In this document: in pieces, positions 977 to 20,409 of the stretch
How positions within the stretch are numbered: position 1 is the first letter of the stretch
How the letters are laid out: each line of letters begins with the position of its first letter
Assembly (NCBI RefSeq): GCF_004010195.1
Contig: NC_057755.1
Location: 9,800,202-9,825,762, forward strand
DNA length: 25,561 nt
Origin: Chiloscyllium plagiosum
Taxonomy: Eukaryota
Direction: 5' to 3'
Program-made: the position numbers and the translations under genes
Notes under the pieces: model-generated
Told to the model about the DNA's origin: nothing
What the model saw: the letters and a program-made list of their open reading frames with translations, nothing else
The model's database searches: none

Positions 977-1003
977 TTTGGTGAGAAGCGGAGGATCCTG
1001 ATC

Positions 1004-1353
1004 ATAGATGAACAACGGCAGCGGGTAGAGGAGGCCGTGCTGTGCCAGGAAGTTGAGTGGGACCGTACCGACAGGCAGGCCAGCGGGCTGGTGTGGCAGC
1101 GTGTGGAGGCCTGGGGCCCGGACGCAGACGAGTCAGGGAAGGTGCTGGTGTCGGTGGCCGGTGTGCGAGGCCAGGAGCAGCACCCACCAACAACATTGCA
1201 GAGCCTGCCCCGCGATAGACCGGGTTCCTCCCCAGCCCAGCGTAGGCGCAAGTCGGAATATCCCCGCCGGCGGAGCTGCATCTCGTTCACGTTCGGTGGG
1301 GCGGAGCTGAGCACAGGCCATCCTGAAGAAGGCGAGGAGCCGGTGGAGATCCG
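1004..1353 (+). CDS. ZFP91: ZFP91-like zinc finger protein, first coding exon (5' boundary uncertain)
   Basis: GC/CpG-rich open frame (I/M)DEQRQRVEEAVLCQEVEW...LPRDRPGSSPAQRRRKSEYPRRRSCISF...EEPVEIR ending at the strong donor CG|GTGAGT (GT 1354-1355, phase 2). RRRKSEYPRRR matches the RRRKAEYPRRR motif I recall from the human ZFP91 N-terminus. No in-frame ATG; ATA at 1004 sits in Kozak context. Acceptor candidates end at 985, 988 and 1007. Confidence 0.75.
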
Positions 1354-10416: not shown

Positions 10417-10729
10417 NNNNNNNNNNNNNNNNNNNNNNNNNNNNNNNNNNNNNNNNNNNNNNNNNNNNNNNNNNNNNNNNNNNNNNNNNNNNNNNNNNNN
10501 NNNNNNNNNNNNNNNNNNNNNNNNNNNNNNNNNNNNNNNNNNNNNNNNNNNNNNNNNNNNNNNNNNNNNNNNNNNNNNNNNNNNNNNNNNNNNNNNNNNN
10601 NNNNNNNNNNNNNNNNNNNNNNNNNNNNNNNNNNNNNNNNNNNNNNNNNNNNNNNNNNNNNNNNNNNNNNNNNNNNNNNNNNNNNNNNNNNNNNNNNNNN
10701 NNNNNNNNNNNNNNNNNNNNNNNNNNNNN
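10417..10729. other. Assembly gap (313 N) inside the PLE
   Basis: Run of N between the inverted arms. Confidence 0.99.
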
Positions 10730-13109: not shown

Positions 13110-13577
13110 TTGTTAAGGTGCCAGTTAAAACAAAGTTTGCTGTACACCAACAACCTGGTTGTGGGTGTGCAAGACAGAATATGAGTTTGCAAATATCTTA
13201 AAGCTTCCGAATGCATCAAATGGGTGGGAGGGATGTCCAGGAGAGAGCAAAGATGGAGCAGTCTGATTAAATTTTAATTTTGAGAACCATGAAGTGATAC
13301 TCTGTGCCTGGCAAAATGGCAAGCAGCCATACAAGTTGAAAGATTTGTTAAGGTGCCAGTTAAAACAAAGTTTGCTGTACACCAACAACCTGGTTGTGGG
13401 TGTGCAAGACAGAATATGAGTTTGCAAATATCTTAAAGCTTCCGAATGCATCAAACGGGTGGGAGGGATGTCCAGGAGAGAGCAAAGATGGAGCAGTCTG
13501 ATGAAATTTTAATTTTGAGAACCATGAAGTGATACTCTGCCTGGCAAAATGGCAAGCAGCCATACAAGTTGAAAGAT
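13110..13577. repeat. Direct tandem duplication (235 + 233 bp)
   Basis: Units 13110-13344 and 13345-13577 differ by two substitutions and a 2-bp indel. Confidence 0.95.
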
Positions 13578-14971: not shown

Positions 14972-15270
14972 TCACAGAAAATGCTGGAAATAGTCAGCAG
15001 GTCTGGCAGCTTCAATGGAGAGAGAAACCAAGTTAACGTTTCAGGTTAGTAACCTTTCATCAGAACTTGTTAGGCTATTGACTGGAAACGTGAACTCTGT
15101 TTCTCTTTCTTTCTCCCTTTGTCTCTTTGTCCATCTCTCTATCTCTTTTGTCCATCTCTCTATCTTCTCCTCTGTAATCCTGCCACAGATGCCCTGCCTG
15201 ATCTGATTATTTCCAGCATTTTGTTGTTGTTCATTTCGGGTTTCCAACATCCTGCCATGTTTCTTTTTCT
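14972..15270. mobile_element. Old PLE fold-back element
   Basis: AAAATGCTGGAAATA…TATTTCCAGCATTTT inverted arms, a TTTCCAACATC extension and an internal hammerhead motif. Confidence 0.7.
15029..15069 (-). ncRNA. Minimal hammerhead ribozyme motif with complete stem I
   Basis: Minus strand CAAGUU-CUGAUGA-A-AGGUU-ACU-AACCU-GAAAC-GUU-AACUUG: 6-bp stem I and 5-bp stem II. Confidence 0.65.
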
Positions 15271-15342
15271 CCTTTTGTTGTGAATGATGCCCGATGGTTG
15301 CCCCACCAGCTGTCACTCCTTTGTTCTTTGTTCTTGTTACAG

Positions 15343-15374
15343 AGATCTGCAGCGATTTGGTACTGCTCACAGAG
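15343..15374 (+). CDS. ZFP91: ZFP91-like micro-exon (32 nt)
   Basis: Strong acceptor TTTGTTCTTTGTTCTTGTTACAG| and donor AG|GTAAGC. Phase 2 to 1 exactly bridges the exon ending at 1353 and the exon starting at 19198, reading (R)DLQRFGTAHR(E) with no stop. Confidence 0.75.
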
Positions 15375-15854
15375 GTAAGCGGATTTCATGTTCCATTCAT
15401 TACCCCTTACCCGCCAGCTCCTGCAATCACGGGATGTTGGTGTCAGTTTATACATTGTTTGCAGAGCTCCCAGGCTGCAACCCCTTGTCATCTTAATGTC
15501 GTGTTAGAGGAGCAGGTCCAATTGGGCATTTAATTTGGCTTGTCGTGCTGAACCTGGCAGAGCTACATAAAGCCCCCAAACTGCTGTAGAGAGAGGGATG
15601 TGTTGGAAGGTGCTCCAGTAAGTTGCACCGATCTGTAAGATTTGTGTGGAATTGTTCCATCATTTGAGCTCCGAGACCGCGTCGGCCAGCACTGCCAGTG
15701 TGAGTGCGCGCAATGTGATTTGGAATGTGCAAGAAGATAAGGCAACTTAACCTAAACAGTAAAAAGTAAAAGACAGTGGTGGGGGAGAGAGGGACAGAGA
15801 ACTCCGAGGGCTCTCATATACTAATCATTAAAGGTAAAAGGCAGGCTGAGCAGA

Positions 15855-16720
15855 GACATGGTAGTGCCATGGCAAAGCTGCTGAATTGGACAGTCCACAG
15901 GCCCCAGGGTCACCGCTGTGGCAGCTCGTGGTAAGAAAGCCCTTATCATTTAAAAAAAAAATTTTGGGTAGCTAACGCTGAGACATCTTTCCTTCCCTGA
16001 TCTTGCCTGCATGAGACTCCAGACCCATGGTTGACTGTTGCCTGGCCTCTGAAATGACCTGGCGGGTCATTGCGTTCCCGATGGTGGCTCGCCTTCGTCT
16101 TCTCGAGCATTTAAGAACTAGCAGCGTCGCCAATTGGAACCCAATTCCCATCAAAGGACGTAGAGTTGAAGAAGCTGTGCGGGTAAGATGAGCAGAGTCT
16201 TGGACGTGGAGCGCAAGGAGAAGGAAGCTGCCCTAAGCCAATATAAGTCATTGGATAGCTCTCACATCATCCTTCTTGACCTGGGACTTGAGAGACGCAA
16301 CATCAAAACCCTGGCAAAAGAATTCGAAGAACGGAACCAGAATTGGGGTGAAGGGGTGTGTTTCAATTATTGGGAGAGACTGGAGAAGCTGAGTTCTTCG
16401 CCTTGGATTCTGGACATTGTCAATGTTGGGGGGCTCTCAATGAGTCAATAGGGAGAAGCTATTTCCACCATCAGGAGAGGGGATGCAGATGGAAGGCCAT
16501 TGACGAGAATAATAAGTGACAGGGAGATGGCTATTTAAGTTAACAATCCAACTAGTGAGTTGAATTGCGCACTTTAAAGGCTACATGAAGCAGACTGGAG
16601 TCCCTTTTCTAGAGGGACTTGGATGAATATTCAAGAGAAAAATACACGGCCAGAATAGAGGGGCAGCATTCGGGGCTTAATTGATATGTCTTTCGTGGCA
16701 TCAGCCCAAGCACTGAGCAG
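15855..16720 (+). mobile_element. SINE relic (~15855-16150) followed by a decayed CR1 3' part (~16160-16720)
   Basis: GACTCCAGACCC…TGGTTGACT core as at 7515-7545. CR1-like …ERLEKL… and GGGAGAAGCTATTTCCA remnants. Confidence 0.5.
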
Positions 16721-18478
16721 CCGATACACCTGAAAGCCAGTGCTGCTCTTAAACCATTTTCACCTCTCAGCTCTCAATTTCTTCTGCATGTTCAACTCCA
16801 ATTCCTTAGGGCCTAAATGCAGTTGACCTTTGGGAACATAGTGATGGGTTGATGAGATTTGCAGATGTGGAGGTGACTGACAGGCATAGTGGAGAGTGAG
16901 TTTCTGCGGGGAGGGTAGTGTCAGGCAATTTCCATAAGACCTGTGTGGCCCAGCCTCTTGCTGCCAGTGTTTTTGGTTGGGAGTGGGGGGGGGGGGGTTG
17001 TGGTGGAGGATGTCAGTGGTGGGGAATATTTTGTCCTTTATGGCTGCTATCAGTTGGCTCTGGTGTTGAGGCCCTGAGAGCTCGTCTTCCAACCCCCATC
17101 CATCGCTCGTTCACCTCATCCTGCTGTTGACATTGTCACCGCCGGCTGGCACACCCACTCTGCTAGAGAGTGCCATCCTGCGGGCACTGGTTGGTGTTGT
17201 GTTCAGTCTTGTGTTTTGCAGTCGTTGGTCATTGTGCTCGTTCAAGGACAGCTTGAATCTGGCTCAAGTGTGCGTGGGCTCTCGAGCTCAGGATGTTGGT
17301 TGGGTGGGGGTGCGGGGTGGGGACGGGAGGCTCAGGGCTCCTCACCGTGGACCCAGATCAGGAATCTGGTGTCTGCACCCGACCTGCGCACACTTCAATA
17401 CAGCTTCAGTTGTCCTTTAGAGGTGATGGATGGTAGTGCTGGAGAATGGAACCCGGTTCAGTCTCAATTTTGCTTTGTATAAATACCTGAGCATTTTATT
17501 CACCTTGCTTTATTTAAAGTTTCGCTGGGACGTTTGGAAATGGGAGGGTGATTCTTTGTGCCCAGCCCTTTTTTTTTGTTTAAATTGGTGCTTGGTATTT
17601 TGTAACACAGCACTGCCCCCCCATTCTCTATCATGTGTCGTAATTCCTTTTACCAGCCTTCTGCTAGTTCCCCACGTCTTCCATCTCTGTCCCCACACAG
17701 GAAACATAAGCAATATTGCTTCTGTGTCCATTCTCTGCACTCTCAAGCCTGAGCCAGGTTCCAGAATCAAGGAGCGTGGCAGTTCTGTGACATGAGTCTG
17801 GCAGAGCTCCCCGATTCACTTTCGTTCCTCGGGAGGGACAGAGGGAGTGGGTCTCTGGGTATCTGCTCGCTACCAACGCGAGATGCCATGTGTGACTTGG
17901 TGCAATACCATCAATCCTGGAGCTTGAGGGCAATCCCGGAGTCTTCCCACCACTGGAAAGGGTCAGTGGGCTGAATACTGGACTCGTGTGCCCTGGGTCA
18001 GCCTGGCGTTCCTTCTACCCTTAATTGTAGTCCATAGCTGGGCAGAGCTGGGAAAATTGAGTAACCAACTTGAAGCAAGTTTCCCAGAGCTGGGAAAATC
18101 TGCTCATCACTGCCAGGTGAATCAGTTCGGGCGCTGGAGCTCTCATGGTAAAGCATTGTTTCCAGGAACTGAAGTGTGTGTAGCTGGAGCAACAGTCACA
18201 GGGGAAGAGTCCTGGGTCAGGAAACCCACCTGACGTGGGGTACACAGCAGAATAGCGTGGAAACAAAGTGGGGCAGGAGGGAGAATGTGTGGAGTATTCG
18301 GGGTGGGATAGCAACAACAGGGGCCCACAGCGAGTGTGGGTATAATGTGCACAGCAGGAGCCCTTGGGTCAGGTCAGTTTTCCGGGTGGTGAACGGGTGC
18401 TTGGCTGCCAAAGGATCCAGCCATTGGGTAGGGAAGGTGTGTGTGTGTGTGTTGCTGGAGCGGCAATTGCTGCAGGAC

Positions 18479-18680
18479 CACTGAGAGGTCCCGTAATGTC
18501 GAAAGCACCTCATTTCCAGTCTTGTCATAAATCCCCACTGAGAGCTCCGGGAATGTCGTGAAGCCCCACTAAGGGCTCCCGCCATGTCGTAAAGGGCAAC
18601 TCAGAGCTGCCGTAATGTCTGGGGCTCCTGTTCTGTCGTGAGGCCCCACCCCAGGGGGCTCCGGTCCTGTTGTTAGGCCT
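18479..18680. repeat. Degenerate ~31-bp minisatellite
   Basis: About 6-7 units of consensus ~CACTGAGAGCTCCCGTAATGTCGTGAAGCCC. Confidence 0.7.
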
Positions 18681-19197
18681 GACAGGAGCGTTATAATCAG
18701 GCAAAATGAAAACTGACAGACCCACCCAGATCGGGGCCCAAGCAGTAAGTCCAGTTAAAGCATGTGGTCTTAAGATGTGTCCCAAATAAAGTTAGTGAGA
18801 TTTGCTGAGAGAATCCCTGAGATTTGCGTATGAACAGAAAGAGCACGTCAAATGGTTTGAGGACTGGGTGTATTCTTTACACGGCAGGACGGGGGAGGGA
18901 GGGACGTTGGTAGGTCCCTTTGTTGGGTTTTGCCTGGGTTCTCGTGGAGCCCGTTGGTCGAGGCTCTGGACGTTGAGTTTCATCTGTGACCGGAGAGAGC
19001 AGCCTTACCAGGATTGATGGTGTAATGCAGGATGCTGCCCACTTCAGGAAGCAGGCATTGCCTGGTGGTGGTGGTGTGGTTGGGAGGGAGGGGGTAGAGA
19101 GAGAGGGACGGTATGTGTGGGGTTGTGCTCTGCCCCCACCACCCCACCCTCCAAGAGTGCCGGCACGGTGACCTCGAGTTCTTGTTCTCCTCCGCAG

Positions 19198-19752
19198 AAA
19201 ACGGCGAGGGCCCCGCGTGCCGGCTGGACCTGCATACCTGTGGCGAGGCCCTGGGGGAGCTGGTGGGCTGGGCGCACAGCCACTGCCGGGGCTGTCCCCA
19301 CCCACCCGGCCTGAGGTACCTGCCGGCCGGCGGCACCACCCCTGCCGTGGCCGTCTGGGCCTGCCAGGCTGGCCATACCTACCGCTGGCGAGCGGCGGGA
19401 CACCACTTGAGAAGGAGAGGGCAGCAACGACGGCACCGGCGGCGAAACGCCGAGGCTGGAGGATCCCCCACGTTGGCCGCGACCACCACCACACCCGATA
19501 ACCAGGAGGAGGAGGAGGGAGGCAGTGGGCCAAACCCGGAACTGGAGTCAGCGCATGGCTCGGACTCTGAGGAGGCAGGAGGAGAGAGCAGCGAGGGCCA
19601 CCCGTCCCACTCCGTCGCCTCCCTGCGGATTGTGGAGTGCGAGCTGGAGGAGCAGGGGCCGGGCGGCAGGGGAGCCCGGCCTGGCTGGAAGGTGATCCCG
19701 TGTAAGGACGAGTGCTCGGACGAAGAGCTGCCCGATGATGGACTTGATCCAA
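19198..19752 (+). CDS. ZFP91: ZFP91-like exon (555 nt) with a ZNF276/653/692-type His/Cys module and an acidic region
   Basis: Acceptor TTCTTGTTCTCCTCCGCAG| and donor AA|GTATGT, phase 1-1, CpG-rich. Encodes ACRLDLHTCGEALGELVGWAHSHCRGCPHPPGLR…AVWACQAGHTYRW…EEEEGG…KVIPCKDECSDEELPDDGLDP. Confidence 0.85.
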
Positions 19753-20409
19753 GTATGTTTCCCGCTCAGTTGTCCCCATCGCCATCACTCCCGCCTCCCC
19801 CCATCCCAAACCCACTGACCCCAGCGCAGACCGAATCACAATTTATTCGAGAGTTTGGAATCCCTTTCCCACCACCGCCTTGCTTTTTTTTTTCAAACGG
19901 CTGGTACTCTGGCCCTGTTTAGCTCCCGTTTTAGTTCTTTTGAGGAGTCCAGTTTTAAAATTGTCAACAACAAAGCTTTTGTCTTACACAAGATCAAAGG
20001 TTAGTTTACTGCATAGCTACCGAATGCAGTTGCTAAGGGAAAAGTGATAATTTATTAACTCAAAGTACACTTACCAAGCCTCAGAGTAAGTACAGATCAG
20101 AGCTACATTTAAAGACAGACGTTCGATCTGTTATGGTTGCGGGCCTGACTTACTTGAAGATTTCTCCCGCCAGAGAGACGATTTTTTAAAATTTCAAGCT
20201 GCAATGGCTTTTGCAATGCAATGATTTGAGGTTTCTCCCACATCTGGTCTGAGCAGGACAGGTTCTGGGAAGGGGGTCCCTGTATTTTGCTTTTACAGCA
20301 CTGCAGGGTTGTTCTCCATGAAGCCTGGTTCAGCACAACAATCCATAATCAGTTTGCTTCACCCTGGAAAATGGCCCCTTTACCTGCCTTCTGTCAGTTA
20401 GCCAGAATT

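Follow-up and report, generated by a model that had tools for sequence, protein, structure and literature searches.

A 555-nt exon of the shark gene zfp91 was found to encode a conserved module of about 55 residues that is, as judged from comparison with Pfam, NCBIfam and the PDB, apparently unannotated. The exon is located in the window analysed here, a 25,561-nt stretch of the Chiloscyllium plagiosum genome; that it is real and homologous to the modules of the paralogues ZNF276, ZNF653 and ZNF692 is near certain. What is new is the domain family, the kind, a finger-associated effector domain, being already known. On balance, the module probably represents a zinc-stabilised, non-basic protein-interaction domain through which DNA-binding regulators recruit cofactors. 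An earlier note, made from the letters of the window, had proposed an ancestral H-C-C-H zinc-binding module of a four-gene family that was kept in shark ZFP91 and lost on the way to mammals. The core of this idea holds; it had to be corrected on the splicing (a micro-exon and a cassette exon), on the breadth of the family and on the date of the loss.

Gene identity and splicing of the module exon

As judged from its zinc fingers, the gene in the window is shark zfp91. The remaining exons, including those encoding the five fingers, are located on the same strand and contig at window-equivalent 26.9-60.9 kb, the finger exons 13-35 kb beyond the window. The finger array shares 92% identity with all eight bony-vertebrate ZFP91 rows compared, versus 62-70% with ZNF692, 47-51% with ZNF653 and 42-45% with ZNF276. 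In a midpoint-rooted tree of 25 finger arrays, for which paralogue labels were assigned by motif (source names later bore out 7 of 12), the gene was placed in the ZFP91 group (support 92/91), with ZFP91 as sister to the module-bearing ZNF692 (support 98/95). This grouping with ZFP91 rather than ZNF692, ZNF276 or ZNF653 agrees with the identification given in the earlier note. Furthermore, a search with the finger region returned 904 proteins, and the best 120 of these (22 from sharks and rays, 98 others) are overwhelmingly named ZFP91. The basic RRRK-x-EYPRRR motif and the LIC[EK]S motif are both present in the shark gene; YPRRR and LIC[EK]S are shared with bony-vertebrate ZFP91.

Concerning the genomic neighbourhood, none of six PF01110 matches, sought as a check of synteny with CNTF, lies on C46, the contig carrying zfp91, and the best match was found on an unplaced contig. 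In Mustelus (P0149/P0015) and lungfish (P0228/P0099), the znf692-like and zfp91 proteins share one longest contig figure (103,476,532 and 1,974,114,035, respectively), which suggests that these sister genes reside on one chromosome in both.

The coding exon bearing the basic motif RRRKSEYPRRR spans 989..1353 on the plus strand (start taken from model P0003, phase-2 donor after 1353), with the motif itself at 1241-1273, 18 kb upstream of the module exon. In the earlier note, the module exon had been joined to it directly and in frame. The motif is indeed present, but direct splicing from the donor after 1353 (phase 2) to the acceptor before 19198 (phase 1) yields five stops and is ruled out. 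In contrast, a route via a frame-restoring micro-exon of 32 nt at 15343..15374 (plus strand, phase 2 in and phase 1 out), recorded in spliced contigs of runs X1 and X5, keeps the frame with no stop in 233 codons; the RRRKSEY exon therefore reaches the module exon through the micro-exon. Loose contig ends join the 3' end of exon 989..1353 to the micro-exon, which is common to the included and skipped forms. An internal donor after 1295 is also in frame and is used by no model or contig examined.

The 555-nt exon itself (19198..19752, plus strand) is a cassette exon that is spliced both ways. It encodes the module, a basic/acidic linker and a second conserved block, and it is symmetric (phase 1/1); this symmetry and the frequent skipping had been missed in the earlier note. 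In run X1, a GT..AG joint connects 15374 to 19198, the exit lies at 19752, and a contig spans the whole exon with one other letter. The skip junction, leading from the micro-exon straight to the next exon, is present in contigs of both X1 and X5. Four runs were compared over 15200-19900. In X1, whose RNA status was guessed, though its contigs are spliced, contig depth as a rough measure amounted to 10.8 for the included versus 185 for the skipped form, an inclusion ratio that comes from the contigs of this one run. In X5, the skipped form had a depth of 23.8, and a 198-nt fragment from the exon, without a joint, one of 9.65; X15 provided six reads with no listed joint and X16 none. The included form is regarded only tentatively as a minor isoform, since contig depth measures expression poorly.

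Model P0003, the only module-bearing model seen for this species, is 100% identical to the module region and includes the micro-exon; it skips a small downstream exon at window-equivalent about 33100-38550 and ends out of frame without fingers. Models that combine the module and the fingers originate from other sharks. The sole ray model seen (P0025) is devoid of the module exon, which may be due to skipping.

Low inclusion in X1 and the ray model, together with the loss of the module in bony vertebrates described below, could be taken to mean that the shark exon is a decaying, functionless relic of a domain that is functional in the paralogues. Moreover, among shark and ray models containing the upstream motif, a biased sample, 17 of 39 skip the exon, the 22 that include it all being from sharks. 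This reading is given little probability. Module-including models from nine shark species keep the exon open and frame-preserving, with all ligands retained. Across sharks, the module is 81% identical versus 33% for the adjoining linker, which argues that it is under constraint, and the second conserved block reaches 84% in comparison with six other shark sequences.

This second block (19611..19727, plus strand) consists of two hydrophobic-plus-Cys stretches followed by acidic residues. It resembles a hydrophobic-Cys-acidic motif present later in ZFP91 and in KIAA1958, ZNF692 and ZNF653; a SUMO-interaction-like or phospho-dependent motif would be a guess.

Three further features of the locus were recorded. 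A degenerate partial copy of the post-cassette exon is located in the next intron at window-equivalent 28504-28584 (70% identity, stops). An intronic tandem duplication of about 235 nt at window 13110-13577 is near-perfect (99% identity) and represents either a recent duplication or an assembly artefact. Assembly gaps (N runs) occur in introns of the gene at window 10417-10729 and just past 25561.

Conserved residues and predicted fold of the module

Translation of 19218-19388 on the plus strand gives the peptide quoted in the earlier note, including H-x3-C and W-x-C-x2-G-H. The module core, L-x2-L-V-x-W-x3-H-x3-C-x3-P...W-x-C-x2-G-H-x-Y, is located at 19230..19388 (plus strand) and is predicted to comprise a helix and three strands. 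Among the proteins collected, 142 domain matches were obtained, 136 of them covering the full module. Residues H25, C29, P33, W50, C52 and H56 are kept in 136/136 of the latter, a count that includes the query and its shark orthologues and derives from a profile rewarding these very columns. The knuckle glycine G55 is retained in 130 of the 136 and belongs, with L15, L18, V19, W21 and L35, to the other strongly conserved positions; conserved positions other than the ligands are hydrophobic. As assumed in the earlier note, the four His/Cys positions align across ZNF276, ZNF653, ZNF692 and shark ZFP91, and the same applies to L-x2-L-V-x-W and the proline. When the exon peptide was shuffled 100,000 times, the loose two-half motif arose in five cases; a six-frame search of the window gave a single occurrence of the strict pattern.

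The putative ligands follow one another in the order H, C, C, H and form two pairs. The first pair, His 19281-19283 and Cys 19293-19295 (19281..19295, plus strand), is predicted to lie at the end of the helix, and the second, Cys 19362-19364 and His 19374-19376, belongs to the W-x-C-x2-G-H knuckle (19356..19376, plus strand). Given the invariance of these residues, it is highly probable that the module binds zinc, and the four Cys/His residues are likely to coordinate one zinc ion.

For the shark ZFP91 module, AlphaFold2 predicted, from a 58-row alignment, a helix at residues 12-28 and strands at 34-38, 47-51 and 57-61 (pLDDT 83, pTM 0.64). The same elements were obtained for the shark KIAA1958 module (46-row alignment, pLDDT 84.5), although the two models are not fully independent because their alignments share many family members. 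In the models, the helix terminates with His25 and Cys29, and the turn linking strands 2 and 3 has Cys52 and His56 on either side, a placement consistent with one zinc site. A complex prediction for two module copies with zinc scored 0.00, the alignment having been unused and the chain's own fold being uncertain.

In order to compare the module with known domains, sequence and structure databases were searched. Pfam provided no family for the window exon or the module at E<=10, including ZAD, KRAB, SCAN, BTB and zf-C2H2, and for the ZNF653 copy only DUF6248 (E 0.005) and DHH (E 0.16) were reported. NCBIfam gave nothing near the cut-off, PDB sequences no significant module match (best E 0.39), and the ESM Atlas a best value of 0.80, which is a lead only. 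Foldseek searches of the PDB and viral structures with the module models returned no match at E<=0.001. The best VIA-align results were Z 4.8 (rmsd 3.2, 59 aligned) and Z 4.3 (rmsd 3.5, 60 aligned); both are generic and none reached Z>=5. The absence of structure and family matches does not prove a new fold.

Two assignments to known zinc domains were rejected. A classical C2H2 finger follows C-x2-4-C-x12-H-x3-5-H and forms a hairpin and then a helix, whereas the module presents H, C, C, H with the helix first and has no zf-C2H2 match. Likewise, the module does not belong to PF14311 (DUF4379), a probable treble-clef, since a C-x2-C within 30 residues after the knuckle was found in 0/286 module carriers and Pfam gave no match. 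PF14311 shares the W-x-C-x2-G-H-x-aromatic knuckle (hhalign probability 86.6, over 20 columns only), and its repeats appear among the weaker module-profile matches, where they account for most multi-stretch hits and match the knuckle alone. However, the upstream H-x3-C occurs in 0/84 repeats and the downstream C-x2-C in 80/84, so that the order of the ligand pairs is reversed relative to the module.

Carriers of the module, ancestry and loss

The C. plagiosum genome harbours at least six intact single-copy module loci, on which repeated searches agree. Using tblastn with full-length relatives as well as source names, they were assigned to zfp91, znf276, znf653, a znf692-like fragment, kiaa1958 and a TF_AP-2-type gene. 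The possibility that the module belongs to a transposon still present in many copies in this genome was rejected, only six intact loci having been found (a lower bound). A profile built from the six sequences retrieved 288 proteins (E<=0.001) from 1.84 billion representatives, and 150 of the 288 were listed. Pfam analysis of 115 matches revealed the combinations ZAD + module + C2H2, module + C2H2, module + DUF3504, module + CCDC106 and module + TF_AP-2, and one weak BEN match (E 0.0065) was detected in a module carrier. The module is always N-terminal to a varying DNA-binding or transposon-derived part.

In one listing, 120 matches were ZNF276-type or unnamed. Looking up 30 carriers provided 26 named organisms, all jawed vertebrates, and no jawless or invertebrate carrier is present among the 150 of 288 matches listed. 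Of the carriers named in the earlier note, mouse ZNF653 and many tetrapod ZNF276 proteins were encountered; mammalian ZNF692 (HSREC...VWECSAGH) was not among the named matches, where ZNF692 carriers are from shark, ray and lungfish. Moreover, the restriction to four ZNF genes was too narrow: all four align, but KIAA1958, a KIAA1958-like gene and the AP-2-domain gene carry the module as well, so it is not confined to this family.

The last of these, located at C11:49192300-49232299, combines the module with a TF_AP-2 domain at the C-terminus (P0140, E 1.7e-14) and has a chimaera relative, LOC103185275. It may encode a cartilaginous-fish AP-2-like factor, since its named relatives besides this shark locus are from chimaera and skate only. 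In some fish kiaa1958-type models (P0134, P0142, P0145, P0213), CCDC106 replaces DUF3504 at the end or accompanies it, and a weak BEN match was obtained for one; KIAA1958 thus seems to possess more alternative last exons than the two described.

Regarding ancestry, zfp91 (RNA-confirmed), znf276 and znf692 (both predicted) each have a phase-1 acceptor at a distance of 71 nt upstream of the conserved Trp; in znf653, the predicted phase-1 acceptor precedes it by 41 nt. This match of phase and position in three of the four ZNF loci favours vertical descent of the exon, and the module was presumably present in the common ancestor of ZNF276, ZNF653, ZNF692 and ZFP91. Ancestral retention in shark ZFP91, as put forward in the earlier note, is favoured on the same grounds. 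A later acquisition by exon shuffling from KIAA1958 or another carrier, with the exon gained in sharks, would fit the observation that the best genome match of the window module is KIAA1958 (E 1e-7, 46%), followed by ZNF692 (E 2.9e-5, 38%). Yet the shared acceptor, the start of the KIAA1958 module at the initiator Met and the sister relationship of ZFP91 to module-bearing ZNF692 all disagree with such a gain, which appears extremely unlikely. Furthermore, a tree of the module (46 rows, 57 columns) separates ZNF276, ZNF653, KIAA1958 together with KIAA1958-like, and the AP-2 gene; its base is without resolution, and shark ZFP91 is not paired with KIAA1958.

Of the KIAA1958 and ZFP91 sequences, 6/6 and 11/12, respectively, contain the second motif (hydrophobic-C-E/K-S/T with acidic residues after it), as do some ZNF692 and ZNF653 proteins, its wording being closest between shark ZNF692 and KIAA1958. 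It was found in 0/5 ZNF276 sequences, and 7/8 KIAA1958-like sequences gave no match, the match in the eighth being without the pattern's context. In KIAA1958, the module exon is separate from the DUF3504 exons, and the module is single-copy at each of the six genome loci. According to the accessible part of PMC3212892, the DUF3504 exons of KIAA1958 are Crypton-derived and two DUF3504 isoforms use separate exons; that part gives no description of the N-terminal region. Presumably, the front part of KIAA1958 arose as a copy of this host exon, with transposon-derived last exons being joined to it. The direction from host to KIAA1958 stays a proposal because of the base of the module tree.

Host-transposase fusions (bioRxiv 10.1101/2020.05.07.082677, as far as its text was available) are similar in that a host regulatory exon is spliced to alternative transposon-derived last exons. 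In contrast to these, the host domain in KIAA1958 is the module and not KRAB, SCAN or SET, and the available main text of that preprint mentions none of KIAA1958, Crypton and DUF3504.

ZNF692 and ZNF653 share a basic helical region before the module (P0149, P0152) that has no Pfam match, and RRRKSEYPRRRSCISF of shark ZFP91 (window 1241-1295) may be a relic of it. This region may in turn resemble the N-terminus of a Kolobok transposase, with RRRKSEYPRRRSCISF as its remnant. Regarding a Kolobok link, the ESM Atlas returned only chordate ZNF692 and ZNF653 clusters, and the literature listing showed none.

The module appears to be absent from bony-vertebrate ZFP91. None of 98 non-shark ZFP91 proteins contains either half-motif or matches the profile (best domain 0.1 bits; none with a larger profile), and no cassette isoform was seen. 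These proteins originate from bichir, paddlefish, eels, tarpon, coelacanth, lungfish, amphibians, reptiles, birds and mammals; all are protein models, taken from the best 120 of 904 matches, in which a rarely included exon could be unannotated. As had been stated in the earlier note for human ZFP91, the tetrapod proteins compared show no module. However, with bichir, coelacanth and lungfish also lacking it, the loss is likely to be older than an event on the way to mammals and to have taken place in the bony-vertebrate stem.

Proposed function and alternative readings

An N-terminal, non-basic domain ahead of a variable DNA-binding part is the pattern known from KRAB, SCAN, BTB and ZAD. Like these, the module is a small N-terminal domain on its own exon before a C2H2 array, and in ZNF276 it sits directly after the ZAD (zf-AD, PF07776), which also binds zinc. 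It differs from all four in lacking a sequence match to any of them and in being unexpanded, at only six loci in this genome, and from ZAD in its predicted helix-plus-sheet with H-C-C-H instead of four Cys.

In the proposed mechanism, a helix lying on a three-stranded sheet, likely held by a single zinc ion through His, Cys, Cys and His, would offer a surface that recruits cofactor proteins for DNA-binding regulators, as KRAB, SCAN or ZAD do. In shark zfp91, exon inclusion would add this surface to the finger array, splicing serving as the switch. A copy of the host exon would have become the front of KIAA1958, spliced to transposon-derived last exons in the manner of KRAB in host-transposase fusions. 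ZNF653 is reported to be a co-repressor that binds the SF-1 ligand-binding domain and represses several nuclear receptors, the responsible region not being given in the accessible text (PMC6348741). The L-x2-L-V helix recalls an LxxLL box, which is a lead only.

A module that self-associates like ZAD, SCAN or BTB, forming homo- or heterodimers, e.g., of ZNF692 with KIAA1958, is considered unlikely. Besides the module, this family has another N-terminal domain, the ZAD of ZNF276, which mediates homodimerisation (PMC12649048, accessible part); a second dimer domain would be redundant in a protein that already possesses the ZAD. The helix is conserved at L15, L18, V19 and A22 plus W21, H25 and C29, possibly more than one packing face needs, and the N-terminal stretch of the module is partly conserved and of low confidence in both monomer models (pLDDT 58-59), although the monomer as such is predicted to fold with high confidence.

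Direct contact of the module with DNA or RNA as an extra zinc domain is very unlikely. All module carriers are proteins of a DNA-binding type, dsRNA-binding domains and zinc ribbons occur among weak Foldseek rows (none significant, E>0.5 throughout), and an Arg-rich stretch follows the module in shark ZFP91. This stretch, however, falls in the poorly conserved linker; the module shows no conserved basic column (none above 41% Lys/Arg) and a negative mean net charge of -1.4 (58 stretches), and in ZNF276 the C2H2 array is responsible for DNA binding (PMC9463175, accessible part).

For bony-vertebrate ZFP91, the accessible text of PMC13246443 describes a protein with five C2H2 fingers that regulates ubiquitination, binds TTAAAG and binds and activates promoters. 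Since it works there without the module, the latter is dispensable in bony-vertebrate ZFP91. A role of the module in the reported ubiquitination activity was rejected, human ZFP91 being without it.

In agreement with the earlier note, no functional description of the module was found in the full-text literature, a search scope with subscription journals mostly outside it. In their accessible parts, PMC12649048 and PMC9463175 give only ZAD and C2H2 as the domains of ZNF276, PMC13246443 characterises ZFP91 through its five fingers, and PMC8076635 holds nothing relevant to the module. Three of ZNF276, ZNF653, ZNF692 and KIAA1958 appear, with ZFP91, in the thalidomide-analogue (cereblon) degrader literature as far as it was accessible.

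The four proteins ZNF276, ZNF653, ZNF692 and KIAA1958 are poorly understood vertebrate nuclear proteins, and they share one apparently unannotated domain with a predicted fold. The module accordingly offers a concrete target, with four residues to mutate in one small domain, and bears on transcription control and the role of KIAA1958. In shark zfp91, splicing naturally provides forms with and without the domain, and the gene offers a clean case of a domain being lost by way of an optional exon. A more far-reaching reading, possible but doubtful, would define a fifth C2H2-finger effector class with an unsolved zinc fold (helix with H-x3-C first, hairpin with C-x2-G-H second) that had arisen by the time of the jawed-vertebrate ancestor. 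It would have been reused as the host portion in several transposon-capture genes (KIAA1958 with Crypton, CCDC106 or BEN ends; the AP-2 gene) and would link ZNF276, ZNF653, ZNF692 and KIAA1958 either through a shared cofactor or directly with one another; shark zfp91 would represent the splice-optional intermediate before complete loss.
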